Below, piece by piece: positions 23,857 through 64,000 of a stretch of DNA of 64,000 nucleotides. Under the pieces are notes generated by a model, which searched no databases, was not told the origin of the DNA, and saw only the letters and a list, made by a program, of their open reading frames with translations. The stretch covers positions 736,136-800,135 of the forward strand of contig JBJBDC010000001.1 in assembly GCA_047285535.1 (NCBI GenBank), given 5' to 3'. A program made the position numbers and the translations under genes. The DNA is from Synechococcus sp. GTDB taxonomy: Bacteria > Cyanobacteriota > Cyanobacteriia > PCC-6307 > Cyanobiaceae. The stretch's first letter is position 1; the number at the start of each line of letters is the position of its first letter.

Positions 23857-25357
23857 GACCCGCCTCCTCTGCTGCAAGGCCATCGAGCATTTCTACGAGT
23901 GAGTCCATTCCCGACCAGAAAACCTGCTCGCTGTCTTCAAATGAGGTCCACGCGACGGAAAGGTTCCTGGAGTCACCAATACCCACTGCTTTCTTTACTT
24001 TCTCGACATACCGAGGAACGGAGAGGTTGCCACTTTGGGCGAGTGTGTCTTTGTTTGCCACGACCGCGGCGAAGCCAGGTTGATTGTTGAAGTTCTGATA
24101 TGCGTCGAGGATCCTCGCCTGGTGCTCCGGCTTGAGAAAACTTTGAGATCGCTCTCTGGCAACTTCGTTTACGGCATCAATAAAGAGGATCTTGCCCTTG
24201 CGATTTGATGGCTTCGCGGAGCGACAGATTAGGACGAAGGCCTCCATCGGAGAGTTGTAAAAAAGGTTGGGTCCTAGACCCAATACGCACTCAAGAAGGT
24301 CCATCTCGATGAGTTTTCGCCTCATCTCTGCTTCCTCGTTACGGCCGAGTACGCCCTGCGGAAACAGGATCGCGCATCGGCCTGTCTTCGGATCCATGCT
24401 CTTGAGGATGTGCTGGAAGAACGCGTAGTCGGCACGACTCTGTGGTGGGGTACCGAGAAAGTTCCGTTCCCATTGATCGCTTTGCCAAGCACTCCGCTTC
24501 CACTTCTTGATCGAGTACGGAGGGTTGGCGAGCACCACATCGAAGGTCTTCAATCGGTCTCTTTCGATTAAGGCTGGCTCGTGAAGCGTATTTCCGCTGC
24601 GGATGTCGAAGTCGGCTACGCCGTGCAAGACGAGATTCATGCGGGCGATAGCCGCGGTGATGTTGATTAGTTCCTGTCCATAGAGGCCGATGGTCCGGGC
24701 ATCTCCGCCGTTGCGCTTCACCTCGGCCAAGCATGAGATCAACATGCCGCCAGTGCCGCATGTTGGGTCGTAGATGGTCTCGCCTGACTTGGGTTCCAGC
24801 ATCTGCGCCATCAAGTGCACAAGTGTGCGGTTGGTAAAGAACTCCTGTGCGGTGTGGCCCGAGTCGTCGGCGAACTGCTTGATTAGGTACTCATAGCCGT
24901 TCCCAAGTTCGTCTTCGGGAACGTTGGCGAGGCTCAAGGTGTGCGTGGAGAAGTGCTCAATCAGGTTTTTGAGCGTCTCATCCGGCATTTGAGCTTTATC
25001 AGTCCAGGCTGCACTTCCGAAGACACCTTTGAGACGCTCCGGATTTGCCGCTTCGATGGCTTGGTAGGCGTTGAGGAGTGCTCGGCCCACATCAGCGGAG
25101 GTGATACGGACATCGTTCCAGTGCGCACCCTCGGGAATGGTGAAACGGTCATTGGCGGTTGCCATGGCGTAGCCCTCGTCCTTGGTATCTGCAAAGGCTT
25201 CGTTGTAATCCCCGTCCCAGACATCCGAGAGCCGCTTGAAAAAGAGCAGCGGGAAGATGTACTGCTTGTAGTCGCTGGCATCGATCAGCCCACGTAGCAG
25301 GGTGGCAGCCCCCCAAAGGTAAGACTCGAGTTGTAGCTGAGTGAGCTTTTCAGTCAT
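23849..25357 (-). CDS. hsdM: type I R-M methyltransferase subunit M2 (NPPY; predicted m4C)
   Basis: 'LESYLWGAATLLRG', 'YDPTCGTGGML', motif IV 'ANPPY'. Confidence 0.92.
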   Translation of the reverse strand: MTEKLTQLQLESYLWGAATLLRGLIDASDYKQYIFPLLFFKRLSDVWDGDYNEAFADTKDEGYAMATANDRFTIPEGAHWNDVRITSADVGRALLNAYQAIEAANPERLKGVFGSAAWTDKAQMPDETLKNLIEHFSTHTLSLANVPEDELGNGYEYLIKQFADDSGHTAQEFFTNRTLVHLMAQMLEPKSGETIYDPTCGTGGMLISCLAEVKRNGGDARTIGLYGQELINITAAIARMNLVLHGVADFDIRSGNTLHEPALIERDRLKTFDVVLANPPYSIKKWKRSAWQSDQWERNFLGTPPQSRADYAFFQHILKSMDPKTGRCAILFPQGVLGRNEEAEMRRKLIEMDLLECVLGLGPNLFYNSPMEAFVLICRSAKPSNRKGKILFIDAVNEVARERSQSFLKPEHQARILDAYQNFNNQPGFAAVVANKDTLAQSGNLSVPRYVEKVKKAVGIGDSRNLSVAWTSFEDSEQVFWSGMDSLVEMLDGLAAEEAGHA

Positions 25358-27086
25358 TGATCCAACCTCCTTCGATCAACACAGTTCGCAGGTGGTCTTC
25401 AGCTGCGCGTGCTTCGGTGAGTGCTTTTTTGAAAGCGGAGACCGCCTGGGGCAGGGGTGGAATGTCTTCGTCGATGGGCGGCAGTACGTAGCGGGAGATG
25501 TTGAGCGTCCACCCTTCGTCTTTGATCTCAGGGAGGCTGACGACCTTGGCTCGATATTCGATATCTTCAAAAGCTTGGAACCACTCGACGATTTGTTCCC
25601 CGTGTTCTGAATCGAGAAAGTTCTGCGCGCGGCCTTTTCGGAAAAGGTGCTGTGCATCGATGATGAGCACCTTGTTCTTTCGCTCGGCGGGCTTGTTGCG
25701 TCGAAGGACAACCACGCAGCCGGCGAGTTGGGTGCCGTAGAAGAGGTTTGGAGCTAGGCCGATCACTGCTTCGATTAAGTCTTCTTTGAGCAAGCCTTCG
25801 CGGATCTTGCCTTCGGCACTCTTTCGGAACAGAGCACCCTGTGGCAGCACTACGGCCATTCGGCTTGAATCTGCATCGGCCATTGACGCAATCATGTGCT
25901 GGACGAAGGCGTAGTCGCCGTAGCTATTGGGCGGCAGGCCGTATTTCTTACGCCCCCAGGGATCGTTTTCCCAAATCTCTTGCCCCCAGTCTTCAAGTGA
26001 AAAAGGTGGATTGGCAATCACGCAGTCAAACTTTGCTAGCCCTCCGGATTCTTCAGTGAATGCAGGCTGGCGCAGGGTATCTTCACGGACAATCTTGAAA
26101 TCCTCGATGCCGTGAAGGACGAGGTTCATGCGCGCGACTGAAGAGGTCGTGAGATTTTTCTCCTGGCCGTAGATCTTGCCGAAGAACGTGCGTGGGTCTC
26201 CTCCTTTTTCTTTCACGTGATCGATCGCAGCGAGCAACATTCCACCGGTTCCGCAGGCGGGGTCATAGATCGATTCACCCTCTTTTGGGTCAAGGATTTT
26301 GACCATCATCTGCACAACGCTTCTCGGTGTGTAGAATTCGCCGGCTTTGTTTCTGCGAGTCACATCAGCAAATTTCCCGACTAAGTATTCGTAAGCATCA
26401 CCAAGAACGTCAGTGGAAACAGCTTGGTTTCCCAACTTAATAGCGGAAAATCCTTCAATCAGATCCTTGATAAGTTCGTCTGGAAACTTCTCCTTGTTTC
26501 CCCAATCTCCCGAGCCAAAAACACGATTCAAGGTCTCTGGATTACTCAGTTCTATTGTTTGCATAGCATTTTTTAGAGTTGCTCCAACGTCCTTTGCGGC
26601 TGTTCTCACATCATCCCAGTGGCAATCCTCGGGTATTTGAAAACGATGCTCGTCTTTAAAGTCTTCTCCATATCCTTCAAGCATTCTCGAGTATTCTTCA
26701 TCCCACACATCGCAGATGCGTTTGTAGAATAGAATCGGCAAAATATATCCCTTCCAGTCAGTGCGATCGACGGCAGAACCTCTGAGGATATTGGCTGCTT
26801 CCCAAAGTGCTGATTTCAAATTTGACTCTTTTGCGAGGTTGTTATCCCTGTTGCTTGCAGGTTTCTTATCGTTAGTTACTGCACTAAGGCCACCATCGGG
26901 TCCACTTGCATTTTTTGCTGCCCCAAGTGCAACAGCCATGTTCTTTGCTTCGTGGAATTCTTCGTCGGAAATCTCATCGTTTAATTCATGGCTAAGTGCT
27001 GCCCTTAGATCTGCATTGCTAATCCGGCTGCCATCCTCGGGAATTAGTGCAATCAGAGTGTCGGTGAGTTCGGTTAGTGATGCCAT
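25350..27086 (-). CDS. hsdM: type I R-M methyltransferase subunit M1 (NPPF; predicted m6A) with about 85-aa N-terminal extension
   Basis: 'LKSALWEAANILRG', 'AGEFYTPRSVV', 'YDPACGTGGML', motif IV 'ANPPF'. Confidence 0.92.
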   Translation of the reverse strand: MASLTELTDTLIALIPEDGSRISNADLRAALSHELNDEISDEEFHEAKNMAVALGAAKNASGPDGGLSAVTNDKKPASNRDNNLAKESNLKSALWEAANILRGSAVDRTDWKGYILPILFYKRICDVWDEEYSRMLEGYGEDFKDEHRFQIPEDCHWDDVRTAAKDVGATLKNAMQTIELSNPETLNRVFGSGDWGNKEKFPDELIKDLIEGFSAIKLGNQAVSTDVLGDAYEYLVGKFADVTRRNKAGEFYTPRSVVQMMVKILDPKEGESIYDPACGTGGMLLAAIDHVKEKGGDPRTFFGKIYGQEKNLTTSSVARMNLVLHGIEDFKIVREDTLRQPAFTEESGGLAKFDCVIANPPFSLEDWGQEIWENDPWGRKKYGLPPNSYGDYAFVQHMIASMADADSSRMAVVLPQGALFRKSAEGKIREGLLKEDLIEAVIGLAPNLFYGTQLAGCVVVLRRNKPAERKNKVLIIDAQHLFRKGRAQNFLDSEHGEQIVEWFQAFEDIEYRAKVVSLPEIKDEGWTLNISRYVLPPIDEDIPPLPQAVSAFKKALTEARAAEDHLRTVLIEGGWIND

Positions 27087-27091
27087 TTGGA

Positions 27092-30000
27092 TTATTTAGT
27101 CTTTTGTTTGGGCAACAGTTCGCACAACCGATTGATTTGCTCGGCCTCTGCCACCGTGTTGGCAACACCGCTGGCCAGGCCGGGTGATCCCACCACGATC
27201 GAGAGGCATTGCGCCCGGCTGATCGCCACGTTCAAGCGGTTGGGTTCCAGCAGAAAGCTCAGACCCCGTGGTGCTTCATCACCACTGCTCGCGGTGAGCG
27301 AATGAATGGCAACCGGGGCCTCCTGGCCTTGGAATTTGTCCACCGTGCCCACCCGGGCTTTGCCGTGCAGCCGTTGCTGCAGCCGGTTCACCTGCACGTT
27401 GTAGGGCGCTGTCACCAGGATGGTGTTGGCATCAAGCACGCCTTCTTCTGTGCCGTTGCCGCGGGCGATGGCGTAACGGCTGCCCAGCAGTGCATCCACC
27501 AACTGCTCGATGCGACCAATCTCCTCTGGGGCATGCACGCTCCTGCCGCTGTGCTCCACCGCTTCAAACACCAGGCCTTGCACTGGGTATAGCGATCCAT
27601 CACTGCTTTGGCAGGGCTTGCTCCAAGTGATGCAGTTTGCGCAATTGCCTTGGTGGGCTTGCAGGCGGCTCTCGTAGAACAGCTCGCTCACCATCGCCGT
27701 GAGGCTCGGCTCCATCCGCCAGCTGGTGGGCAGGAACACGCCGCGATCGTCCGGCACCACGGCCTCCCCTTGCATCCAGAACTCCAGGCAGCTCTGGCCG
27801 GAGTCGCCCGGGTGATCGGCCTGGGACGGCTGCGCCAGTTGCTGTTGATCGCCCACCAGCAGGATCGAGCGGGCGCAGCGCGCCATCACCAGCAGATTGG
27901 CGAGCGACATCTGCCCGGCTTCATCCACCACCAGCCAATCGAATTGATCGGCGAGCTCTTCCTTGCAGAACATCCAGGTGGTGCCGCCCACCACCGCTGA
28001 GCTGGCATCCAGCTGGCCGGGTTTCAGCACAACAATGCCGGCCTCGGCCATCGCCTCTTCTTTGGAGTTGCTGCACTTCACCACCTGGCCGATCACCCCG
28101 GCGTCAGCGCAGGTGCTCTTGGCTTTCTTCAGCAGGTTGTTGATGGCGGCGTGGCTGTTGGAGCTGATCGCAATGCGTTGGCCCTGCTTGGCCAGCTGGG
28201 CAATCACCTGGCCGGTGACAGTGGATTTGCCCGTGCCCGGCGGCCCCTGCAAGGCCAGGGTGATGCCGCTGTTGCTGGCGAGAAAGTCCGTTAGCAGTGC
28301 ACTCACCCGGTTGGGATCACCCTTGAGTTCGCGGTTCAGTGCTTTGAGCGCGGGCAGTGGTTGGCGTTCCAGCAGTTGCTGGATCGCAGCCGGGAGCTTT
28401 TGGTTGCGATCGACCCAACCTTCAGCCTGCTCTTCCAGGCTTGCTCTGATCGATTTGCTGATGTCTGCCGGCACCTTGATCAGGCTGGTGGCGCCTTTGG
28501 GGATGCCTTCGCCGTCGCCATTGGCGATGCATTGATCGCGTTTGCTCCAGGGCAGCTTCAGGCTCACCTGCCCCTGCTCGGCATCAAGGGCATCCACATC
28601 CAGCTTCAGGCCTGTTTCGGACAGCTCCAGCTGCAGGCGCTTGTCGCCATCGCCGCCGTGCAGCTTCAGCGGTTGGCTGGGATCAAAGCGGAAGTGGTGG
28701 ATGTCGGCACCGGTGCGGGCGCTGGGGCGTTCCTCCATCCCCGTCCACTCAGCAGCGGCAATGGCTTCGCCGTCATCGATCAGTTCATCGGGGCTGAGCT
28801 GCGCTTTGTTACTGCGATCGAAGTAGGCCCACCAGCCCACCTTGGCTTCGCGGTGATGGAAGGGCAGCAACTGGGCCAGCAGTTGTTGGGCTCTCCAGCT
28901 CAAGCCCCTCGGGCCGTTCGCTTCGGGGTCCGTGAGTGGGTCGGGGAGTTCATCGAGCAGCCGTTGGCTGAGCCGTTCCAGTGGGTAGGGCTCCCGTGTT
29001 TCCTGTTCTTCGTCTGTGGTGAGCTTCAGCGGTTGCTCAGGCAGGCCTTGTTCACGCCTGAGCTTCAGAAGCCAGTCGTGCAGGAACACGGTGCTCTCGC
29101 AGTCTTCGTGGTTGTAGTCCTCAATCGCCTGCAGCTTTGGACTGGCCTGGGGCGCATCGCCTGGAATGGCGGGTTCACCGGAGGTTTGCCAGTGCAGGTA
29201 AGCCACCACGGAATCACCGGCGTTGGTCACCCCCGCCTGGCGGGCCTCCATATAAAGGTGCTCCACCTTCTTGATCGAATAGCTGGGTTCGCCCAGCACG
29301 ATTGAGCTGGTGACGATTGGCAACAGGTCCACCAATAGTTCGCTGCGCAGCCAGGAATCGATCTCGGCTTCACGGGTGGCGTGCTGTTGCGCCAGGTGCC
29401 GCATCGCCGTTTTCTCGTAGGCGGCGTAGTGGTAGATCCGCAGGCCCGGGAACTTGACCCGTCGTTCCTCCACCCAATCCACCCACGCCTCGAAGGCGCG
29501 TTTTTCCTCCGCTTCGCTGTGGGCCCAGAACGCCTTGAACAACGGCTTTCCCTCTGGGGTGTTTCGGTAACAGGCGCCAAACAGGTATTCGAGCTTGTTG
29601 CCGCTCACTGGGTCATGGATGCCTTCCATGTCGAACCAGATATCGCCGGCATCAGCAGCCGGCAGCGCTGCCAGGCCTTTGCCAGTTTCAATCGGCCTGA
29701 GGCGATAGGCCGGCCGGCCATCAGCATCCAGGGGCTGCAACTGCATTGCGGCCTGTTGGCGCAGCTCATGCAGGGCCTCTCCATTCAGCCCGGGGATAGC
29801 TGTGCCGTCAGGAACAGCAGCGAGCTCTTCAATCATGCTGATGCCGGCAGCGCGCAGTTTCTTGCGTTGGCTCTGGCGCATGCCCGCCACCAGCATCAGA
29901 TCGCGTGCCTCCTCGAGCCGTTGCTCGATGAACGTCGACCAGCCGCCGTGATCCCCCGGTGCATCCTCGGGAATCACCGCTGGATCGAAGCCCTCGCGGA

Positions 30001-30580
30001 ACTGGCGGTAGCGCTGCCTCAGTGATTGGTACCAAGCCCAGAACTGATCGGTGGCGTAGGGCTGGAACGTGCCGCCGCCCAGGTACAGCTCGAACTGATC
30101 GGGTCGATGCCCAAGCAGCGGGGTGAGCAGTTCGCAGTAGGCCGAGGCCTGCACCAGGAAGGTGGTTTTCGGTTTGCTGGCGAGCTTGCACTCGATCGGG
30201 ATGTAGCTCCACTCCCCAAGCAGCGAGGAGCGATCAATGCGCTTGAGCAGGTCGGCACTGCCGCGCATCTCGTCGTTGCAGAGCGAGGCCTGGTGGATGA
30301 ACTCCACGCCTTCCGCCATCGCTTCACGGGTGGCGGCGTAGTCGGCGTCGGTTTGTTTGCCGGGCAGCCGGGCCATGCTGTGGCCTGCCTTTTCCAGCTT
30401 GGTGAGCAGCACCTGCTCGTGCCGGAGGCCATCGGCAAAGAGCTGTTGATCCAGCTCACTCACCGCTGGCTTGCTGCCTTCAAACAGCTTCTGCGCCTGC
30501 AGCTCCTCCCACCAGGCGCCGATCACTGGGCTGATGCTGAACAGCGACAGCTGGCTGGGAGTGATCAGGCGGGTGGGCAT
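27092..30580 (-). CDS. TM0106-family RecB-like nuclease fused to RNase H-like and SF1 (DNA2/UPF1-like) helicase domains
   Basis: 'GSADLL...IECKLA' PD-(D/E)xK; 'WFDME', 'YHYAAYE', 'YSIKKVE', 'YN.EDC'; 'QGPPGTGKS', 'DEAGQ', 'VGDQQQL', 'TVDKFQGQE', 'RLNVAISRA'. Confidence 0.92.
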   Translation of the reverse strand: MPTRLITPSQLSLFSISPVIGAWWEELQAQKLFEGSKPAVSELDQQLFADGLRHEQVLLTKLEKAGHSMARLPGKQTDADYAATREAMAEGVEFIHQASLCNDEMRGSADLLKRIDRSSLLGEWSYIPIECKLASKPKTTFLVQASAYCELLTPLLGHRPDQFELYLGGGTFQPYATDQFWAWYQSLRQRYRQFREGFDPAVIPEDAPGDHGGWSTFIEQRLEEARDLMLVAGMRQSQRKKLRAAGISMIEELAAVPDGTAIPGLNGEALHELRQQAAMQLQPLDADGRPAYRLRPIETGKGLAALPAADAGDIWFDMEGIHDPVSGNKLEYLFGACYRNTPEGKPLFKAFWAHSEAEEKRAFEAWVDWVEERRVKFPGLRIYHYAAYEKTAMRHLAQQHATREAEIDSWLRSELLVDLLPIVTSSIVLGEPSYSIKKVEHLYMEARQAGVTNAGDSVVAYLHWQTSGEPAIPGDAPQASPKLQAIEDYNHEDCESTVFLHDWLLKLRREQGLPEQPLKLTTDEEQETREPYPLERLSQRLLDELPDPLTDPEANGPRGLSWRAQQLLAQLLPFHHREAKVGWWAYFDRSNKAQLSPDELIDDGEAIAAAEWTGMEERPSARTGADIHHFRFDPSQPLKLHGGDGDKRLQLELSETGLKLDVDALDAEQGQVSLKLPWSKRDQCIANGDGEGIPKGATSLIKVPADISKSIRASLEEQAEGWVDRNQKLPAAIQQLLERQPLPALKALNRELKGDPNRVSALLTDFLASNSGITLALQGPPGTGKSTVTGQVIAQLAKQGQRIAISSNSHAAINNLLKKAKSTCADAGVIGQVVKCSNSKEEAMAEAGIVVLKPGQLDASSAVVGGTTWMFCKEELADQFDWLVVDEAGQMSLANLLVMARCARSILLVGDQQQLAQPSQADHPGDSGQSCLEFWMQGEAVVPDDRGVFLPTSWRMEPSLTAMVSELFYESRLQAHQGNCANCITWSKPCQSSDGSLYPVQGLVFEAVEHSGRSVHAPEEIGRIEQLVDALLGSRYAIARGNGTEEGVLDANTILVTAPYNVQVNRLQQRLHGKARVGTVDKFQGQEAPVAIHSLTASSGDEAPRGLSFLLEPNRLNVAISRAQCLSIVVGSPGLASGVANTVAEAEQINRLCELLPKQKTK

Positions 30581-30836
30581 GGGATGGCTTGAACCTCCTT
30601 AAAATGACCTTGCACCGTGGGTTTGTGCATCCCCCACCTGAGTGAGTGAGACCCTTTAGTCCCCGGGAGCTTGCGGCGTGATCGCTTCACAGCGTTCAGT
30701 TTCAGTCGCCTGAGTGGCCTGCTTGACCTGTTGAAGCACGCAATCGATCACTGACAGCTCGAAATCACACCGCCTAAAGGGTTTTTTCTGTAATGTCACC
30801 CCATGCCAAAGGGCTTGAGGAGTAATAACTGGAGTC

Positions 30837-36406: not shown

Positions 36407-38002
36407 ATGGGTTGATTCGCATGGCGCAGTCTGATTGCCCTGGCCGTTCTGATCGGAGTATTAGCGCTTGCTCTGAAAACCGCTCGGAAGCGGCAGAAGG
36501 CCCACACGGAGCTCAGGCCATCACGGGCCCCAACGATTCCAGCAGCCAAGCCCCTGGCGCCGTCACCCACCAAGCTCGTTCCCCCCGAGCCCTTGGCACC
36601 ACCACCGGAAAAGAGCTCGTCGGTTGAGGTCTCCCGGGAACCTGCTGTCGAAGCCCACAGTTCGATCTCGCCGCAGGGAAAAATTTGCGCACTTGTTACT
36701 TACAAAACAGCCACTGGGTTTCGCTCTGAACGGGAGGTGGTGCTGTACAGCCGGGTAATGAAGCAAGGGTCCCTCCACGCCATCACCATTCGAGAGCCAG
36801 GAAATCAAATAACGAAAACCTTCGTTTCAGTGGTTTGGAGCGATTGCAGCTTCTTGATGCATCTCTGGAACGCATCCTGAGCTCCCCCACTGACATCAAG
36901 AGCTGGATTGAGATCAATCTTCCACTCAAGAGCCAGAGCCGTGTGTCAATAAAAGCCAAGCGCGCCGGCGTAGAGCAATCGGCTCAGTTGCGGAAGCGCA
37001 CCACCCCCTCCGCTGCGCCAAAACCAGCCACTGCAGCAGCTGTCAAACCGCTGCCAACGTTGTTGCCAGAGGGTGCCAAGGGCTTCGCTGTTTTTGATCT
37101 GGAAACCACTGGCCTGAACACATCAGCCTGCTCAATTGTTGAAATTGCACTGGTGTGTGTGGATCCCAGCGGCAGTATCACGGAGACCTGGGAAACATTG
37201 CTGAATCCAGGCTGCACGATTCCCAAAGCAGCCACTGGTGTGCACAACATTGCCAATCAGGATGTGGTTCAAGCCCCTGCCTTTGCCGATATTTCCGCTC
37301 TGTTAGCTGAAAAGATTGATCAGCATGTTCTGGTGGCCCATAACCTGAGCTACGACTTCCCCATTCTCGAACGCCACTTCAGGAATCATTCCGATCTGGA
37401 GTTGGATCTTGGTGATGGCATCTGCACCCTGCGTGGCTTTGGCGGCGATCCTGCGAATGCCTACAGCAAAAAACTGCAGCACCTTTGTTCATTCCACAGT
37501 GTTGAATTTGACCCTCAATTGGCGCACTCCGCCCTCGGTGATGTTCTTCACTTTGGCTCAGGCGCTGATCAAAGGGATGGCCCATCTGCAAGCCTCGACC
37601 GCAGCTGTAGCAACGAGGCGATTGCAGTCTCCTAAAGAGCCCATCAAGGTGTTCACCCGGGCCATGCTCGAGGCAAAGGAGAAATCATCCTGGAGACCAA
37701 CCAGCCTTTCTTTGGAGAGGAGAATGTGCTTCGTCAGCACCGGGCCGCGTTCAAGGCAATTGGACACACCGATTCATCGCGCATCTGCCCATGCGGAGAA
37801 CTTGGGCTTGAGGAAGTTGGAAAGGATCACCAAAAAAGCGCCCCCTGATTTTTTACTCGCAACCAGCCTCAAGCTTGAATCCACAAAAATGACGCAAGCC
37901 CGTGATCGTGGCATCCCCATTCTTTTGATTGAAAAGCTGAATCAGGTCAGGGCAGCAGAAGGTTGTCTTGAGGCCTGGCTTGCCGCTGATGACTGCGTTT
38001 GA
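36407..38002 (+). pseudogene. disrupted TM / WYL-like / DEDDh exonuclease / BRCT-like gene (paralog of 57697-59292)
   Basis: ATG 36407 then TGA at codon 3, TM 'LIALAVLIGVLALAL', frameshifts near 36830 and 37545; 'VFDLETTG', 'AHNLSYD', 'AHSALGD'; tail 'PPDFLLATSL..STKM.QARDRGIPIL'. Confidence 0.8.
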
Positions 38003-38019: not shown

Positions 38020-38538
38020 TCATGCGTTGGATTGCTCCTGCTGATCAGGGCTTGCTTGGAGTTTTGGATTGGTCTCAGCCAGCAGTGCCAACAACCATTC
38101 GATCCGTTGGAGACGTTGATCGAGTTTCATTTCAAGGCTGGTGAGCCGTTCTTCGAATTTCGTTTCACTGAGACCCTTGCTCCGGCTGCTGCTCGTGGTG
38201 GCTTTAACAGGCCAGGCACCGCTTTGACAGGTCTGAACAATCACCGCCCAGGTTGGTTTTTTAGGAGCGGGTCCGATCTGGTTTTCAATCCAAGCCTGTG
38301 CCTCCGCAACCTTGCCGAAGCGCTTTTTCAGCGCCGGCTGCTCGCATTCGTCGGCCGGTAAAAGACCTGCTGCTGCAAGGGCTTTACTGCCTGTTGCCCC
38401 CGGCTCCTCTGGAGGAATGAGGTCATCCACCATTTGCCGCACATGGCCGTTCTGTTCTCCGATGGTGCGATACAGATCAGCGTCACTCTTGGCCATTCGA
38501 GCCATGAGCTCAGCGAAGCGATTGCTGAGATCTCCCAT
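38020..38538 (-). CDS. hypothetical protein A (C-terminal coiled coil)
   Basis: 172-aa ORF adjacent to the upstream gene; diverged second copy at 56.7-57.0 kb. Confidence 0.75.
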   Translation of the reverse strand: MGDLSNRFAELMARMAKSDADLYRTIGEQNGHVRQMVDDLIPPEEPGATGSKALAAAGLLPADECEQPALKKRFGKVAEAQAWIENQIGPAPKKPTWAVIVQTCQSGAWPVKATTSSSRSKGLSETKFEERLTSLEMKLDQRLQRIEWLLALLAETNPKLQASPDQQEQSNA

Positions 38539-38539
38539 G

Positions 38540-39040
38540 CTATTTGGAACCGCGAAGCAGCAGTTTCATCTGCTCAATCAGTTTGTTGATCTGAAGAATC
38601 GACCAGAAACCAGGGTGCTCTTTGGCCTCTTCCAGATCATGGAGCAACTCGTCTAGAGCTTGTTGTTTGTACTCAAATCCCTCCAGTTCTTTGTGCATGT
38701 CTTGAGCGAGACGCATGGCCTCTGCCTTTTCCTCTCCAATCGCCACCAAACGCTCTTCGTAAGTTCTCAATGTGTTGATGAAGTTCAGGCGAGCTTCGCT
38801 GAACTCCCTTGATCGCCGTTTCAGCTGGCCTCGGGAGCGCATGAGCGAGGCGTGGCTATTGCGCATTGCTTTGTAATGGTGATCCGCTTGCTCCGCAGTG
38901 AGTCCGGACAAATCCTTTGGAAAATCACTGGTGGAGCGAATGCCTTTGCATTCGATCTGTGGCTGAATCGCATTGGTGCTCAATGTCGTAATGGAACGAT
39001 TGAGTTGATCAGAATTGGCTTGCTGCAGATCCCCTGCCAT
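38540..39040 (-). CDS. hypothetical coiled-coil protein B
   Basis: 166-aa heptad-rich ORF; partial second copy at about 57.0-57.13 kb. Confidence 0.75.
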   Translation of the reverse strand: MAGDLQQANSDQLNRSITTLSTNAIQPQIECKGIRSTSDFPKDLSGLTAEQADHHYKAMRNSHASLMRSRGQLKRRSREFSEARLNFINTLRTYEERLVAIGEEKAEAMRLAQDMHKELEGFEYKQQALDELLHDLEEAKEHPGFWSILQINKLIEQMKLLLRGSK

Positions 39041-39353
39041 TGCGCAATTTGTTGAACTTCAAGTCTTTTTTCTATAGAAGCCACCCCTGAATTTGCAATG
39101 CTTCTCAGCATGAACTCAGGGAACTTTGAGGAAACAGTTTTGGCAGCGGTTGTCCTCGACAGCGCAAATACCCAGACCCTGATTCAATCCGTTGGAACCT
39201 ATTGCCATAGCAAGCTACGCCGCTCACGATCCGGGCACGATCACCTCCCATTCGAGGATCGTGGCGCGATTGGTTTTTCAAGGCCCATCAATATTGAAAT
39301 CACGCCCAAAACTGATCGGTCGCATAGGGCCGTAACGTGCCACCGACTGCACA

Positions 39354-44833: not shown

Positions 44834-45062
44834 GGGACACTCCGTGATGAGGTATTAAGAGTCACTTTTCAATGCGATGAGTTGTGGATTTTGCTTATGC
44901 ATGGGATTTGTGTTGTCTGCCCACAGACTTGCGGCGGGTTCAGCAAGAAACTGAGCACAGCTCGACTCCACTTCGGTGCAGAGTCGTGAGTAGAGAACCT
45001 GACCTGAGTGGCGGCACAGGGCATCCAATCGGTGGATCAGCACTGGCCCTGGCGGCCGCTGC

Positions 45063-45602
45063 TGCCAGTCAGCAGTCTTTGATTGCAATGGTTTTAATGG
45101 ACATGTCTCTGAGCTATCCCTGTTCTTTGAGCAACTGGGCAGGATGGCGTGCAACTCCCAGTGGTTCAACCAAGCTTTGAATCCTGCTTCACAAATGATG
45201 GACCTAGACAACTAGCGCGTACCTCTCGAACTCTGGGACTTCTCCCCGATGACTCTTGGCGCGGTCATCACACCACCGCCGCAGCGCCATGGCGTCGTCC
45301 AAGGCGTCATCCAGGTCCTCAAAGTCCACCCCCCCATCACTTCGGTACGGTTGAGTCGAGCATGGATGGACCTGTGGATCCGGCCAAAGCCGCTGAGATG
45401 TGTCAGTTGTCGGAGCCTTGATCTGAGACAGCTGCGGCCATCCGCCGAATTGTCGGATGATCGAAGCGAATGAGGAGCACCTGCTGTGGCATCGACCAAC
45501 CGCACCTTGCTGAAGCGCCTGGCCGTGGATCTGGCTGAGCTTTGCAGTGATCCGGAGAATCTCGACTATGCCTTCGACCTGCTCAATGCCACCTATGGGA
45601 CT
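45063..45602 (+). repeat. direct repeat copy 1 (at least 540 bp)
   Basis: Appears identical to 63461-64000; identical shadow ORFs appear in the ORF track at offset 18398. Confidence 0.95.
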
Positions 45603-53970: not shown

Positions 53971-54315
53971 TTAGGCCGTATGTCGTTTGGGATATAAATG
54001 AGCCCAACTCTCAGCCGCCATGTTGTCCGTCACTACAAGCTGGTAGGCCTGGCTGGTCAAGATTTCTGCCACAGCTTCTGCAGGACGTTGTACTGATCGA
54101 CTTGCTGGAAGTTGTTGACTGAGGACTTGATGCATGCGCATCAAGTACCAGGCAGTGCTGTCTAAACCAGCATTGAACTTCGACCACATGTCTTGATTTC
54201 TGCGGGCATTCAGAATCATGTCTGCAGCGTTGTGAGCTTGATCAGCCGCTGTCACAAGCAAGGATTCGACAGGTTTGTGAGCTGGAGATTCAAGATGAAG
54301 AGTTTTTCTAAACAT
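53971..54315 (-). CDS. hypothetical protein
   Basis: 114-aa ATG ORF with a GGAG RBS-like sequence upstream. Confidence 0.5.
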   Translation of the reverse strand: MFRKTLHLESPAHKPVESLLVTAADQAHNAADMILNARRNQDMWSKFNAGLDSTAWYLMRMHQVLSQQLPASRSVQRPAEAVAEILTSQAYQLVVTDNMAAESWAHLYPKRHTA

Positions 54316-54462: not shown

Positions 54463-54750
54463 ATGGCTCCTGTTCTGCTTTTCATCACCGGCGTGCTCGC
54501 TGGGTTGATTGCCGGCTTCATCCTCAGCCGGATGTTTGGCCGAAGCAGAATCGGTGATGGCTCTAGTGAGATCCGGTTGTTGAAAGAACGCCTCCTGAAG
54601 GCCGATCAGGGCCTGACGCAATTCAGTCAAAAGCTGGAATCGCAAAGCTCGGAGCTCCGAGCAGCGCAACAGCAGGCCCAATCACCACGGTTCGCCACTG
54701 GTGCCAACTGGCGCGCAACGTCTCCGTTGAGCAACATACGGCGAGTCTGA
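54463..54750 (+). pseudogene. 5' fragment of rmuC (first about 73 codons) with an unrelated tail
   Basis: 'MAPVLLFITGVLAGLIAGFILSRMFGRSR...LLKADQGL.QFSQ.LE.QSSELR.AQQQAQ' is nearly identical to the 18271 N-terminus. Confidence 0.9.
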
Positions 54751-56000: not shown

Positions 56001-56683
56001 GGTTCAGGAGTGCGCAGTTTTTCTTCCCAGCGCTTGTGTTCTGTGAACTGGATGGTTCTGCTTCAGTTCGCCAAACGGATATCCGGGCCACCACCTTTGC
56101 GGGAGGAAGGTGGGGTGAGGCGGCGGCCATTGATGGTGCCTATCGCCGACAGCAGTAACCAAATGAGTCGCGACAACATTGCGGCGTTGGAACCCGCCTG
56201 GGCGGCGAAGAATGGCCGGCTCCTGTCAGTTCTGTTGCAACCGCGACAGGCGGAAGGGCATGAGAACGGGAATGATCAGCACAGTTATTTTTTGACCGAT
56301 GGGATTCCTTGCTGTTGCTGGTTGCATGCTTTTGGCCACTGCCATGTCCACAGCTTTGACCAGCAAGCCTTCGAAAGCCTGAGGTTGGGAGGGGGCGAGC
56401 TTGTCGGCGGCCCCCAACAGATCAGGCCAGCTTCAAAACAAAGCGCTGAACAGACCTAGGTAAAACCTAGGTTTTTTTGTACTCCTGGGTACTAAGTATT
56501 AATGCCTGATTGCTTGTCGAATGGGTGTTCGTGCGTCGCGATCCAGGCATGCCACCGATGCGGCAACCGGCGTGGCCAGTGATGCTGTTTAGCGCCGGGG
56601 TGGGTGGTTTGGCCCTGGCCTGATCCATTCCTCTGCAGAATCAGTGCATTGATGGGGAGCTTGGTGGCTGGAGCTGGTGTGAA

Positions 56684-57352
56684 TCCTGCTGATCAGGGCT
56701 TGCTTGGTGTTTTGCATTGGTCTCAGACAGCATTGCCAACAACCATTCGATCCGTTGGAGACGTTGATCGAGCTTCGTTTCAAGGCTGGTGAGCCGTTCT
56801 TCGAATTTCGTTTCACTGAGAGCCTTGCTCCGGCTGCAACTCGTGGTGGCTTTAACAGGCCAGGTACCGCTTTGATAGGTCTGAACAATCACCGCCCAGG
56901 TCGGTTTTTTAGGAGCGGGTCCGATTTGGCTTTCAATCCAAGCCTTTGCCTCCGCAACCTTGCCGAAGCGCTTTTCTGCGCTTGCTGCGCAGTCAGTCCG
57001 GACAAATCCTTTGGAAATCACTGGTGTAGCGAATGCCTTTGCATTCGATCTGGGGCTGGATCGCATTGGTGCTCAATGTCGTTATTGAACGATCGAGTTG
57101 ATCAGGATTGGCTTGCTGGAGATCCCCTTCCATTGCGCACTTTGTTGAACTTCAAGCCTTTTTTCTACAGAAGCCAACAGGGAATTTGCACTGCTTCTCA
57201 GCATGAACTCAGTGAACTTTGAGGAAAGAGTCTTGGCATCTTTCGTCCTATTCATCGACACTACAGGAGCCTGATTCAATCCGTTGGTATTGATTGCCAT
57301 AGCTAGTAGCTACACCGCTCGCGATCCGAGCACCACAACCTCCCAGTTGAGA
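56684..57352 (-). pseudogene. degenerate copy of hypothetical genes A+B and their upstream region, with an internal deletion of about 550 bp
   Basis: 56684-56975 matches about 38036-38330; 56978-57352 matches about 38885-39260; frameshifted fusion ORF 56641-57066. Confidence 0.88.
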
Positions 57353-57568
57353 TGTATCGCTGGGTTGTCAGGCACAGATCCACTACATCGGTGCTAGAGA
57401 ATCCATCGACATCCATGGTGTTATCAAGATCCCAGTGGTCTCTTGCTGCCAAGCAGGCAACTTCCCATTTCAGGATCATGGCGTGATTGTTTTGAGGGTC
57501 TATTAATGTCGGAGTCTGGTCTTCTTACACAACAAAGCCCTGATATCCAGTTGGCCAATTGCCTTTGG

Positions 57569-57648
57569 CGTTGCTTGATGCACGTCGACCAACACCCGCG
57601 ATCACCAGGCGCATCCACTGGAATAACCGCTGGATCGAAGCCCTGCGG
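57569..57648 (-). pseudogene. internal fragment of a TM0106 gene
   Basis: 'GFDPAVIPVDAPGDRGCWSTCIKQR' versus intact 'GFDPAVIPEDAPGDHGGWSTFIEQR' (about 29919-29995). Confidence 0.82.
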
Positions 57649-57696
57649 CAGGACAGAGTCGATGACTGAGCTGCAGCAGTCGATGGGAGCGCTGGG

Positions 57697-59292
57697 ATGA
57701 ACAGCGCACTTGGCATCGTTGTGGCGTCGGTGGCTGCATTCACTGGTGGCATCCTCATCCACCGGTTACTTCAGCAGCAAAGACGCCAGAACAGCACTCA
57801 CACACCCACAAAAGGGCCGACTCAGCAGCAGGAAGCAGCCGCCAGGCCAGCAACCGGACTGGTGATGCCGTCGCAGCATGTGCCGCTTCCCGAAGCACCT
57901 GCCAGACCAGCAGCAGCAATGACTTCCTCGGCAGCGGTGCCGCCTGCGCCGGAGCGTGGCCCGCTGGTCGTTCGGCTGCACTACCGCAGGAGCGGAGGAG
58001 ACATCGGTGAATACAAGGGGACCATGCTGAGCCGCAGGCCCGATGACGCCGGGATGCGGCTCGTCAACCTGAGGCTGGACGGCGAGAGATTCGTGAAGCC
58101 ATTCCTGATGGAGCGCATGCTTCGCCTTGAACTGGTCGAGCACAACCGGATCATCGAAGGTGCCGAGTCCATCCAGAACGAACTGCTGCGGCGACTGGAG
58201 ATCGGTCGTCGACGCCGGAAAGCGGATCCCCGCCCGAAGACCACATCATCCTCGGCATCCACTGCATCTTCAGCTACTGCATCATCAGCTGCGGTTGCAC
58301 CTGCCCCTGAACAACAACTCAGTGAGCTGCTGCCTGAGGGCGCACGCGGCTTCGCGGTGTTTGACCTGGAAACAACCGCTCTCAGCATCCACAGCGCACG
58401 GATCGTGGAGATCGCCCTGGTGCTTGTCGATCCTGATGGTTCGGTGACGGATGAATGGGTCAGCCTGATCAATCCAGAGGAATCGATCGGTAACAGCAGC
58501 ATTCACGGAATCAGCGATGCCATGGTGCGTTCAGCCCCTGTTTTCGCAGCGCTGGCACAGACAATCGCCAACCATCTGCATGGCCGCGTGCCGGTTGCCC
58601 ACAACCTGAACAGCTACGACCTGCCGATCCTGAAACGGCATTTCGCAGAGGTGCCCGGTCTGACAATTGAGCTCGGTGACGGCATCGACACGATGCCTCA
58701 CCCTCGCCGCAAACTCAGCACCCTGTGCAGACAACACGGCATCGAGCTGAAGGATGACGATGCCCATACAGCGCTTGGCGACACCAGGGCACTAGCCGCT
58801 CTGCTGTGCAGCAAACCTGGTCATCTAAGGCCTGCAAGCGTTGCCGCATCAACCGCTGGCGCCTTCCCTCCCCTTGGAGACAGCGCAGCACTGACGCGCT
58901 CGGATTCGAACAGAGCACAGGATCAGCAGCCGCAGCCGGCACAGCCGAAAACCAGAACAGGTGAATGGGTCATCCATTCGCTGGATCTCAAGCCAGGTCT
59001 GGAATTCATGGCAACAGGGCCCAAATCAAAGGGTGTCGACACGGAAATCCGCCGGGGCGAGGCCCACGGAGAACAACTTGGTCTGCACTACAAAAAACGG
59101 AACAACATCCCTAAACGGACCCCGCCCGCTTTCCTGCTCAGCACAAGCCTCAGGCTTGCGACCTGCAAGATGCGCGAAGCCCGCGAGCAGGGTCTAGCGG
59201 TTGTGACGGTGGCTGATCTGATGCGTTGCGCATGCGGCGATTCAGTGCGTGCCCATCGCTGGTGCGCCGATGGAAGCCCAGGCGATGGCTGA
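57697..59292 (+). CDS. membrane-anchored DEDDh 3'-5' exonuclease (DnaQ-like) with WYL-like and BRCT-like domains
   Basis: N-terminal TM; ExoI 'VFDLETT', ExoII 'AHN...YD', ExoIII 'AHTALGD'; C-terminal 'FMATG...FLL...CKMREAREQGLAVVT' BRCT-like. Confidence 0.8.
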   Translation: MNSALGIVVASVAAFTGGILIHRLLQQQRRQNSTHTPTKGPTQQQEAAARPATGLVMPSQHVPLPEAPARPAAAMTSSAAVPPAPERGPLVVRLHYRRSGGDIGEYKGTMLSRRPDDAGMRLVNLRLDGERFVKPFLMERMLRLELVEHNRIIEGAESIQNELLRRLEIGRRRRKADPRPKTTSSSASTASSATASSAAVAPAPEQQLSELLPEGARGFAVFDLETTALSIHSARIVEIALVLVDPDGSVTDEWVSLINPEESIGNSSIHGISDAMVRSAPVFAALAQTIANHLHGRVPVAHNLNSYDLPILKRHFAEVPGLTIELGDGIDTMPHPRRKLSTLCRQHGIELKDDDAHTALGDTRALAALLCSKPGHLRPASVAASTAGAFPPLGDSAALTRSDSNRAQDQQPQPAQPKTRTGEWVIHSLDLKPGLEFMATGPKSKGVDTEIRRGEAHGEQLGLHYKKRNNIPKRTPPAFLLSTSLRLATCKMREAREQGLAVVTVADLMRCACGDSVRAHRWCADGSPGDG

Positions 59293-60112
59293 GAACAGCC
59301 GCAAAAAATGGATTGTGCTCGGAATACTGATCTGCCTCCCTGTGCTTCTGGCACTCTGGCCACTGACGCTGACCGCCGGGCTGATCGCCTTTGGCGTGAA
59401 AAGCCTGAGGCACCATCGCGAACTGATGCTGCAGGAAAACGTGGCGGCCTGGTTGGCCAGGCGAAAAGGTTCTTACTGCCGATACGGTAACCGCCACGGT
59501 CTGATTGAGGCGTTGACGCTGCGCGGACCCGTTAGCAGCAGGGAGCTGGTGCTGAATCTGAAACTGCTGGAAGCCGATGGGAGTGGCGCCAGCTTTACCC
59601 CCCTTGAGCTACCTCTGCCCGGCGCAGCCTTCCCTCACCAGGCCTGGGCTGTGGCCTTGAACAGACAGCTGCGTTCGCTGGACGTGGAGCTGGTTAACGA
59701 CATGGCGGTGGAACACGAGGCAATGCAAACCGCAGAGGCCTGGTTTAAGGAGCTGATCTGGACCCGTGAAGCCCTCGGCACGTTGGAGCAAATGGAGACC
59801 GACCTGCGGCAGACACTGAAACTGGCTCCCGGCAATGATCTGCTGGAACCTGGAATACCTCAGCTGAAGGAAGCAGAGCAGCGGTTGATCGGCGAACGTC
59901 AGCAGCTGACGGCAGCACTCAATGAATCCCTTAAAGTGCTGAGGCAGCTCGTGGATTTCCTGTCCGTTCCGAAGAGTGTGCGCAGCTTGCTCAACTTCGA
60001 TCCCCACCGACTGCATGATCCCGGGCGACTCAGAGAGCTGCGCCGCTCCTTCAATGACCTGGTGATGCTGAACGACGTGTTCCGAGAGCTTTCATCGCAG
60101 AAACTGATCTGA
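59285..60112 (+). CDS. hypothetical protein, N-terminal TM and C-terminal coiled coil; coupled to the exonuclease
   Basis: ATG 59285 overlaps the exonuclease 3' end by 8 nt; hydrophobic N-terminus. Confidence 0.75.
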   Translation: MAENSRKKWIVLGILICLPVLLALWPLTLTAGLIAFGVKSLRHHRELMLQENVAAWLARRKGSYCRYGNRHGLIEALTLRGPVSSRELVLNLKLLEADGSGASFTPLELPLPGAAFPHQAWAVALNRQLRSLDVELVNDMAVEHEAMQTAEAWFKELIWTREALGTLEQMETDLRQTLKLAPGNDLLEPGIPQLKEAEQRLIGERQQLTAALNESLKVLRQLVDFLSVPKSVRSLLNFDPHRLHDPGRLRELRRSFNDLVMLNDVFRELSSQKLI

Positions 60113-60299
60113 GCCTGAAGTGGCTCTGGGTAGAGGAGAACTCCTCCAACGTTTAAACGCTCCATCTAACAAAGCAACTTCAGGCCACGAAGCCACGTAA
60201 TTTGCCCCAGAGGAACTTTGCTAATTCAGCAGGGATTCCTCAACTTTCTCGCGGATTGCTCCCAAAAGACCTCTAATCGACTTTCAGTCGGTGGAGAGT

Positions 60300-63338: not shown

Positions 63339-63460
63339 ACGATGACGTCAACGACAGCGCCTTGATTAAGGGTGCAAGAGGTGATATCGGCGGAACTGAA
63401 GATCAAGCATGGGTGCAGATAGCGATCCAGCTGATCAACGCTGGGCCTGGTGACCTCTGA

Positions 63461-64000
63461 TGCCAGTCAGCAGTCTTTGATTGCAATGGTTTTAATGGAC
63501 ATGTCTCTGAGCTATCCCTGTTCTTTGAGCAACTGGGCAGGATGGCGTGCAACTCCCAGTGGTTCAACCAAGCTTTGAATCCTGCTTCACAAATGATGGA
63601 CCTAGACAACTAGCGCGTACCTCTCGAACTCTGGGACTTCTCCCCGATGACTCTTGGCGCGGTCATCACACCACCGCCGCAGCGCCATGGCGTCGTCCAA
63701 GGCGTCATCCAGGTCCTCAAAGTCCACCCCCCCATCACTTCGGTACGGTTGAGTCGAGCATGGATGGACCTGTGGATCCGGCCAAAGCCGCTGAGATGTG
63801 TCAGTTGTCGGAGCCTTGATCTGAGACAGCTGCGGCCATCCGCCGAATTGTCGGATGATCGAAGCGAATGAGGAGCACCTGCTGTGGCATCGACCAACCG
63901 CACCTTGCTGAAGCGCCTGGCCGTGGATCTGGCTGAGCTTTGCAGTGATCCGGAGAATCTCGACTATGCCTTCGACCTGCTCAATGCCACCTATGGGACT
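63461..64000 (+). repeat. direct repeat copy 2 (continues beyond the window), includes the 5' end of the Coq4-like gene from 63884
   Basis: Appears identical to 45063-45602. Confidence 0.95.

Follow-up and report, generated by a model that had tools for sequence, protein, structure and literature searches.

What does an exonuclease of proofreading type do when it is predicted to be fastened to a membrane, and when its gene runs into a second gene of no known family? The question is raised by a pair of genes on the forward (+) strand of a 64,000-nucleotide stretch of DNA from Synechococcus sp., a picocyanobacterium of freshwater type (contig JBJBDC010000001.1; hereafter the window, in whose numbering all positions are given). 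The first gene (57697..59292) begins with ATG and encodes a 531-residue protein with a DEDDh exonuclease domain; the second (59285..60112) encodes a partner of 275 residues. An initial annotation, made from the letters of the window, had taken the pair for a candidate new defence system. By sequence and structural models, which support its anatomy well, the product of the first gene is a single-pass membrane protein. Most of it is predicted to be cytoplasmic, and this part comprises a small barrel, a DEDDh exonuclease with its catalytic residues intact, and a BRCT-like domain. The pair as a whole is a lineage-specific elaboration of soluble DEDDh-BRCT exonucleases. Its core is already known, from DEDDh-BRCT proteins and from a candidate class in PADLOC; new are the membrane anchor, a barrel specific to the family, and an orphan partner. 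As to function, a role as an accessory DNA-surveillance module of the defence type is the reading we favor, tentatively and at somewhat less than an even chance.

Predicted architecture of the exonuclease and its partner

The exonuclease domain (58342..58812, +), a DnaQ/epsilon-like 3'-5' exonuclease of the DEDDh group, is recognized alike by Pfam, PADLOC, and Foldseek. RNase_T (PF00929), the one family that Pfam recognizes in the protein, matches residues 221–370 at 61.1 bits (cut-off 24), and the five catalytic residues of motifs Exo I–III (D223, E225, D308, H357, and D362) are invariant in all 26 aligned sequences, confirming that every DEDDh motif is present, as initially annotated. By its residues, then, the enzyme appears catalytically intact, and 3'-5' activity is predicted. 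An AlphaFold model of the full-length protein, built on 26 homologues, has a mean predicted local distance difference test (pLDDT) score of 80.8. When this model was compared with the PDB by Foldseek, 201 matches were returned at E ≤ 1e-3, all of them to exonucleases; at the top are the exonuclease domain of Staphylococcus aureus DinG (7.8e-8) and Pol III epsilon (1j53; target-normalized TM-score, TMt, 0.69), and the PolC exonuclease, RNase T (E ~6e-6), and TREX1 are found as well. Because only exonuclease matches came back, the full-length comparison is uninformative on the other domains.

Those domains follow the order given in the initial annotation, namely a transmembrane helix, a linker, a small domain, a second linker, the DEDDh domain, and a BRCT-like tail, which both the model and the alignment bear out. 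In the model, a helix spans residues 3–32, disorder covers 32–81 and 173–198, and the barrel, the exonuclease, and a C-terminal alpha/beta domain occupy 90–166, 218–371, and 422–524, respectively. The predicted membrane helix itself (residues 3–21; 57703..57759, +) has a mean Kyte-Doolittle hydropathy of 2.12. Summed over 26 family members, Lys and Arg number 1 in the 15 residues on its N-terminal side versus 95 in the 15 residues on its C-terminal side, and the positively charged n-region that marks a signal peptide is missing from all 26. The positive-inside rule makes this helix an N-out/C-in anchor, so that the exonuclease is predicted to face the cytoplasm; a periplasmic nuclease, the placement that the initial annotation had named as fatal to its proposal, is not what the flanking charges indicate. 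A basic juxtamembrane stretch follows (residues 22–36; 57760..57804, +), with an 'HT' motif in which His35, mostly as 'AHTE', is invariant in 26 of 26 long-form proteins, those with the complete layout. The first linker, rich in Gln, Pro, and Ala (57805..57957, +; pLDDT < 50 at residues 32–81), varies in length across the family alignment, and the second (58207..58341, +; pLDDT < 50 at residues 173–198) is basic and then rich in Ser and Ala.

Between the linkers lies a family-specific small beta-barrel of SH3-like type, 85 residues long and followed by one helix (57958..58206, +). Modeled alone from 10 genomic sequences, residues ~88–170 reach a pLDDT of 93.1, and the full-length model places a six-stranded barrel and one helix at residues 90–166. 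The initial annotation called this segment WYL-like, an assignment that stands for the fold class, which is SH3-like, and is not established for membership of the WYL family. No PDB structure matches the domain at E ≤ 1e-3 in Foldseek. The nearest fold is that of YaeO (6jie; query-normalized TM-score, TMq, 0.59, E 0.025), and the WYL domain of BrxR (7qfz_D; TMq 0.57, root-mean-square deviation 2.5 Å over 59 columns, E 0.15) fits no better than YaeO or the many chromo, Tudor, Spindlin, and ribosomal SH3-like barrels that score near it. Among viral structures (BFVD), nothing is found at E ≤ 1e-3, with a phage WYL protein at rank 13. A language-model feature search places WYL clusters nearest to the domain (0.82), which is a lead only.

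The sequence tests for WYL are all negative, and for that reason the segment is read as a family-specific barrel. Pfam WYL (PF13280) has no match at E ≤ 5 in five of five N-terminal domains. The PADLOC WYL model finds no match in it at E ≤ 10, whereas the same model detects the true WYL domains encoded beside relatives of the exonuclease gene at ~1e-15. Profile-profile comparison by hhalign with true WYL domains, represented by a shallow profile of 4 sequences that makes this a weak test, gives a probability of 0.5% over 10 columns. A sequence-profile search of the PDB returns nothing significant (best E 0.35, to a designed SH3 barrel). When the profile of the domain was run against 1.84 billion representative sequences, 29 matches were obtained, 17 of which were scanned. 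The same exonuclease is present in 8; another 7, mostly short, belong to no Pfam family, and the remaining 2, immunoglobulin (Ig)-repeat proteins, look spurious. No WYL domain occurs among these 17. The segment is thus best described, from sequence and model, as an SH3-like barrel apparently specific to this exonuclease family and WYL-like in fold class only. Two of its residues, R126 and K134, are invariant in the 26-sequence alignment and would be compatible with binding of phosphate or nucleic acid.

The C-terminal domain (residues ~420–525; 58954..59271, +) is better placed. Seven DEDDh-BRCT relatives from actinobacteria and planctomycetes supplied BRCT regions for an hhalign comparison, which gives the profile of the domain (18 sequences) a probability of 92.6% (E 4.4e-7, 75 columns); a control with the N-terminal domain gives 0.2%. 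Two of the seven reference regions pass Pfam BRCT at E ~1e-6, and the rest are weaker. Pfam BRCT (PF00533) itself matches none of nine cyanobacterial C-terminal domains at E ≤ 5, and a sequence-profile search of the PDB yields nothing significant (best E 0.052, to MurC). The model shows a beta-alpha-beta-alpha-beta-alpha arrangement at residues 436–509 with extra strands at 422–430 and 516–524; the short second strand of BRCT domains is not called by DSSP, and the order of elements is consistent with a BRCT core. On this profile and model evidence the domain is accepted as BRCT-like, and the tail described under that name in the initial annotation is supported. BRCT domains are usually associated with DNA transactions.

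The ATG of the partner gene (59285–59287) precedes the TGA of the exonuclease gene (59290–59292) such that the two genes overlap by 8 nucleotides (ATGGCTGA). The same overlap is present at a locus of a Synechococcus metagenome-assembled genome (MAG), designated L001, the sole genomic relative that has both genes, and the partner gene is translationally coupled to the exonuclease gene. Its product has six homologues (44–100% identity), a hydrophobic segment at residues 9–38, and a conserved C-terminal part that is assignable to no family. Across seven sequences the hydrophobic stretch measures 29–40 residues, with 15 and 13 Lys/Arg on its two sides; because charge flanks it on both sides, either a hairpin or one long span would fit. 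The partner has no Pfam match above threshold and none in NCBIfam, PADLOC (0 families at E ≤ 1), or Atlas; its sole coiled-coil signal is a sub-threshold match to a Pfam coiled-coil family (E 0.049). A tblastn search of the phage collection with the partner found no match. Among 7,999 scored candidates no fused longer form was seen, although this is weak evidence.

A comparison with L001 puts the ratio of nonsynonymous to synonymous substitution rates (dN/dS) of the exonuclease gene at 0.21 and that of the partner gene at 0.22, values that indicate purifying selection on both. Because its columns are conserved and its dN/dS matches that of the exonuclease gene, the partner is taken to be a real, co-evolving gene. 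Prediction of a complex between the two proteins from two alignments gave a score of 0.00 and a mark of 0.32, which has no bearing for or against binding. A possible third gene, an open reading frame at 57443–57700 with a stop that overlaps the start of the exonuclease gene (ATGA), was rejected because similarity to L001 starts only at 57638. Promoter and terminator scans around the pair remained at chance level.

Relatives among soluble DEDDh-BRCT proteins

A word-indexed search returned 121 homologues of the exonuclease protein. Those with a named source belong to picocyanobacteria (Synechococcus, Cyanobium, Synechococcaceae, Cyanobacteriota), apart from two weak actinobacterial matches, and the genomic loci that were fetched add MAGs of Vulcanococcus and Prochlorococcaceae; by these matches the family, in long and short forms, appears to be confined to picocyanobacteria. 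Long forms (~500–540 residues) comprise helix, barrel, exonuclease, and BRCT-like domain, of which short forms (~320–330 residues; L007, L010, L012–L016, and L018) have only the last two. The short forms share 39–42% identity with the focal protein over residues ~200–522; neither the membrane helix nor the two linkers, the beta-barrel, or the partner occurs with them. Certain long and short forms have neighboring genes in common.

Farther afield are soluble DEDDh-BRCT proteins of Actinomycetota and Planctomycetota, with which only the exonuclease domain is shared by sequence search. These relatives match the PDC-S48 models of PADLOC over their full length (model positions 1–407) at E 1e-113 to 1e-154. 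The focal exonuclease matches PDC-S48 at E 9.6e-48 with 161 bits, over positions 4–164 of 411 only, and the PADLOC DEDDh model at E 2.9e-28; generic models score the exonuclease domain at 61–97 bits, below the 161 bits of PDC-S48. The N-terminal part alone and the C-terminal 160 residues alone match no PADLOC model at E ≤ 10. In NCBIfam, the best match is NF004719 (PRK06063, 'DEDDh family exonuclease'), again to the exonuclease part only and at 95.3 bits against a cut-off of 389. PDC stands for 'phage defence candidate', an experimentally untried class (PMC11514479).

The initial annotation did not recognize the architecture from described systems. That judgment survives for the whole layout and for the partner, which correspond to no entry in Pfam, NCBIfam, or PADLOC, and not for the DEDDh-BRCT core, which is that of PDC-S48. 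Known membrane-linked defence systems in PADLOC, among them Kiwa and Zorya, show no component match, the exonuclease protein hitting only PDC-S48 and DEDDh. In the literature, as screened by titles and the opening of abstracts, no paper describing this architecture was found.

Chromosomal setting of the pair and its relatives

Between the window and L001, only a 2.6-kb block can be aligned by blastn (57638..60281, +; 83.7% nucleotide identity), and the flanks are not alignable. The pair moves as a 2.6-kb cassette, common only to these two loci and lying in a rearranged, variable region of the chromosome. An integrase, an RNA gene (Rfam), a tRNA integration site, and convincing terminal repeats were sought around the cassette and not found. 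The gene order at the focal site is that of another relative, the Synechococcus MAG locus L006, in which an HD_4 gene, two small genes (c22 and c23), the exonuclease gene, c24, and c25 follow one another; in the window the HD_4 gene is a fragment only (53971–54315). The exonuclease proteins of the two loci are 36.5% identical, whereas proteins of the flanking genes are 59–76% identical. It looks, from this comparison, as if one exonuclease variant had been replaced by another at a conserved site, a pattern common among genes engaged in conflict, although no proof of it.

A second full-length member of the family, complete with helix, 'HT', barrel, exonuclease, and BRCT-like domain, was found at 36407..37990 (+) by tblastn and stop-to-stop open reading frames. 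It is spread over three frames (3/2/3), with shifts near 36826 and 37550, and its three pieces are 46–71% identical to the intact protein of L006 in tblastn (73% nucleotide identity); the shifts probably reflect either a pseudogene or faulty assembly. This paralogue stands directly 3' of SbcCD and is, of the two copies in the window, the closer relative of the intact L006 gene. Two small genes of no family (172 and 166 residues) flank it at 38020–39040 on the minus strand. A degenerate, internally deleted copy of the two lies just upstream of the focal gene (about 56641..57351, −), as self-blastn reveals (38036–38341 equals 56684–56988 at 94%, and 38885–39256 equals 56979–57351 at 86%). In L006 and L011, intact homologues of these small genes stand divergently upstream of the exonuclease gene, and the two may be functionally linked to the exonuclease family.

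Defence genes of the window are concentrated at 17.2–30.6 kb, with DUF429/PDC-S44, RmuC, a type I restriction-modification (R-M) system, and a large helicase with partial MkoA-like matches, and SbcCD is encoded at 32.0–35.9 kb. Together, R-M, RmuC, the helicase, and SbcCD lie 22–40 kb from the focal pair. The genes at 40–56 kb are metabolic or serve transport (a thiamine pyrophosphate enzyme, Coq4-like, P450, DJ-1, a decarboxylase, SelO, and Nramp).

Relatives of the exonuclease gene have a partly conserved set of neighbors. A gene of ~750 residues with AAA_33, WYL, and WCX domains is found near it in four of nine long-form loci (L002, L004, L009, and L011) and three of eight short-form loci (L007, L013, and L018). 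At three loci it immediately precedes the exonuclease gene on the same strand, 106–113 nucleotides away (L002:1081–3372, L004:104–2191, and L013:1612–4032); the two are recurrent neighbors and may form an operon. Its kinase-like AAA_33 domain has weak similarity to PSTK and Pnkp kinases and its WYL domain is a true one; the window has no homologue of this gene. A LysR-like gene flanks six of the eight short forms, HD_4 genes are present in L001, L006, and L009, and secreted SNase-type nucleases in L002, L009, and L011. Defence-type neighbors are seen in three of the eight loci of long-form relatives examined. DISARM DrmD adjoins the exonuclease gene in L005 (E 0), a gene for an Mrr-like PDC-S02 protein is present in L006, and a McrB homologue lies 2.5 kb downstream in L001 (E 7e-67); L003 has toxin-antitoxin genes, among them those for PIN and YoeB toxins. 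The picture is mixed, in that the partly conserved chromosomal neighborhood hints at processing of nucleic-acid ends or sensing of damage and defence genes occur in a minority of loci.

Several further features of the region were observed. The type I R-M locus (23849–27086, −) has two adjoining HsdM-like methylase genes (502 and 578 residues), one HsdS, and one HsdR. The first 219 nucleotides of rmuC (18271–18489) are repeated with 84% identity at 54463–54681, where they form a 95-residue open reading frame that encodes a membrane helix and closely precedes the Nramp-like gene. A direct repeat of 568 bp joins 45035–45602 and 63433–64000 at 98.8% identity; its second copy reaches the end of the window and may be longer. 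Just upstream of the focal start, 57569–57648 is 84% identical over 81 bp to 29919–29999 inside the large helicase gene (27092–30580), a likely further sign of patchwork recombination. A segment of L006 (3160–3654) matches only the two ends of that helicase gene (27122–27253 and 30220–30655), apparently as a deletion remnant, and the whole region from 27 to 63 kb is therefore regarded as an island that is variable relative to L006. A 2.7-kb contig binned as Verrucomicrobiota (L008) carries a long-form gene, near-identical in its first 40 residues and its N-domain to that of the Vulcanococcus locus L009, and is probably mis-binned.

Weighing a role in defence

A defence role for the pair is plausible. 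It is favored by the architecture with its catalytic residues, by the predicted cytoplasmic orientation, by the coupling and co-evolution of the two genes, by the behavior of the cassette, by the apparent exchange of variants at a site otherwise conserved, by the frameshifted second copy, and by the defence-type neighbors in three of eight loci. It is favored also by the score of PDC-S48 above those of generic models and by the precedent of Mpr from Mycolicibacterium smegmatis, a 3'-5' DNA exonuclease anchored in the membrane, which is reported to need its nuclease activity for defence against phage (PMC12596739). In the mechanism proposed, the anchor would keep the exonuclease on the inner side of the cell membrane or of the thylakoid membrane, and it is at the cell membrane that entering DNA, whether phage, transforming, or conjugative, would first expose its free 3' ends. 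The barrel, the BRCT-like domain, or both would bind nucleic acid, a nucleic-acid end, or a protein partner; the nuclease would then degrade from the 3' end, and the partner would gate or localize it. Such a module would work as Mpr does, without homology to it. The fuller proposition, that the pair is an undescribed two-gene picocyanobacterial system against phage or foreign DNA, in which an inner-face exonuclease recruited or activated through its unique barrel and orphan partner destroys incoming DNA, 3' end first, at its point of entry, is rather improbable in that complete form.

A series of results weighs against assigning the pair to defence at all. Outside the exonuclease domain, no part of the protein matches any PADLOC model, nor does the partner. 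PDC-S48 is named in no paper found in the literature and has candidate status only; it also matches, in two stretches at E ~1e-95, two actinobacterial DEDDh-BRCT proteins of 329 and 357 residues (L026 and L033). Because these match so strongly, and because the characterized DEDDh-BRCT protein is a proofreader, the PDC-S48 match is no evidence of defence and was rejected as proof of it. Searches by tblastn found no record among 71 from phages or 201 from plasmids that covers at least 80% of the query, all matches being to the exonuclease domain. The R-M/RmuC cluster lies ~27 kb away, and 0 of 17 genes closer by match PADLOC (nine at 40–56 kb, two at 60.3–61.9 kb, and six other neighbors); the pair had been said to sit in an island with R-M, RmuC, and Mre11/Rad50-like genes, which is overstated, those genes being at 17–36 kb. 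The partner is present in 2 of 10 long-form loci (the window and nine fetched genomic loci), namely the window and L001, and its absence from the other 8 implies that it is not required for the basic function of the family. In these the gene after the exonuclease gene is unrelated and mostly convergent. The coupling to a transmembrane partner that was initially noted thus holds for the window, with an overlap kept in L001, and does not extend family-wide. The AAA_33-WYL-WCX gene, finally, accompanies the exonuclease gene in 7 of the 17 fetched loci, and the conserved neighborhood suggests vertical inheritance and perhaps repair of nucleic-acid ends. The kinase-WYL, LysR-like, and HD neighbors that recur beside many relatives fit chromosomal DNA-end processing as well as they fit defence.

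The main rival, only a little less likely than the favored reading and well ahead of the other alternatives, is an enzyme of chromosomal repair or replication. The family would on that account be the picocyanobacterial counterpart of the actinobacterial DnaQ-type DEDDh-BRCT enzymes, trimming 3' ends in repair or proofreading, perhaps together with the neighboring polynucleotide-kinase-like WYL protein. The anchor would only localize it, for example to membrane-attached nucleoids, and the focal pair would be a diverged paralogue. Consistent with such a role are PRK06063 as the top NCBIfam match, the supported BRCT-level homology to DEDDh-BRCT proteins, synteny with AAA_33-WYL-WCX, LysR-like, and HD_4 genes across Cyanobium, Vulcanococcus, and Synechococcus, and the position of the frameshifted paralogue directly after SbcCD. 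Mycobacterial DnaQ, which combines DEDDh and BRCT domains, is reported to be a clamp-bound alternative proofreader that lowers the mutation rate (10.1101/2023.10.24.563508), a finding that counts both for repair and against defence. The NCBIfam score, however, is 95 bits against the cut-off of 389, and a reading of the C-terminal 60 residues of the focal protein revealed no Q[Y/L]ALF-type motif for clamp binding. An identity of 36.5% amid flanks of 59–76%, a frameshifted copy, and movement as a cassette would be unusual for a housekeeping enzyme, and a membrane tether that acts through two disordered linkers is unexpected in a component of the replisome.

A membrane-associated RNA exonuclease, trimming RNA 3' ends for turnover or against RNA phages, is distinctly improbable. 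DEDDh enzymes do include RNase T, oligoribonuclease, and ISG20-like RNases, and in keeping with this Foldseek finds RNase T. Bacterial ISG20-like DEDDh exonucleases are reported to restrict RNA phages (PMC13344964). A Pfam match to the Rv2179c-like exoribonuclease family points the same way, although it is weak and below threshold (E 0.0039). The nearest matches in sequence and structure are nevertheless DNA enzymes (the DinG exonuclease, Pol III epsilon, the PolC exonuclease, and PRK06063), and it is DNA transactions that BRCT domains usually accompany. Least probable of all, and very unlikely, is a decaying or selfish remnant of a mobile element without host function. Gene fragments, segmental duplicates, and the frameshifted paralogue would suit such a remnant, but both genes of the pair are intact, evolve at dN/dS 0.21–0.22, and are conserved in several metagenomic relatives; the integrase, tRNA gene, and terminal repeats that a mobile element might bring were not found nearby.

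Whichever reading holds, the 85-residue barrel and the partner represent families that carry no annotation. Phage pressure is heavy on picocyanobacteria, which rank among the major primary producers, and few of their defence genes have been tried experimentally. If the pair does serve in defence, it would be a second independent invention of a membrane-anchored exonuclease after Mpr, made on a DEDDh fold of proofreading type, and the PDC-S48 class of PADLOC would gain a function. If it serves in repair, an exonuclease of DnaQ/BRCT type can be tethered to a membrane and linked to a kinase-WYL sensor.

Set beside known systems, the pair resembles several in part. With WYL proteins such as BrxR, CapW, and PafBC (PF13280), the N-terminal domain shares a small SH3/Sm-like beta-barrel, one that is just as close to the barrels of YaeO, chromo, and Tudor domains, but it has neither the winged helix-turn-helix nor the WCX context of those proteins. 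PDC-S48 proteins of ~411 residues (L029, L030, L032, and L043) have an exonuclease closely related to the focal one and a BRCT domain homologous, by profile-profile comparison, to its C-terminal domain. They lack the membrane helix, the barrel, and the partner, whereas the focal protein lacks their TerB-like middle part; they are encoded, moreover, by a stand-alone gene and are soluble, in contrast to the predicted membrane-anchored product of a gene that overlaps its partner. Mycobacterial DnaQ likewise has a DEDDh exonuclease followed by a BRCT-type domain, and is reported to be soluble, with a C-terminal Q[Y/L]ALF clamp motif (10.1101/2023.10.24.563508), unlike the focal protein with its predicted anchor. 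Closest to the role proposed here is Mpr, for which an N-terminal anchor, a metal-dependent 3'-5' exonuclease, and injected linear DNA as the proposed target are reported (PMC12596739). The two are set apart by description: Mpr has a DUF4352 domain and a nuclease region reportedly unlike known nucleases, whereas the focal protein has a DEDDh-BRCT core.

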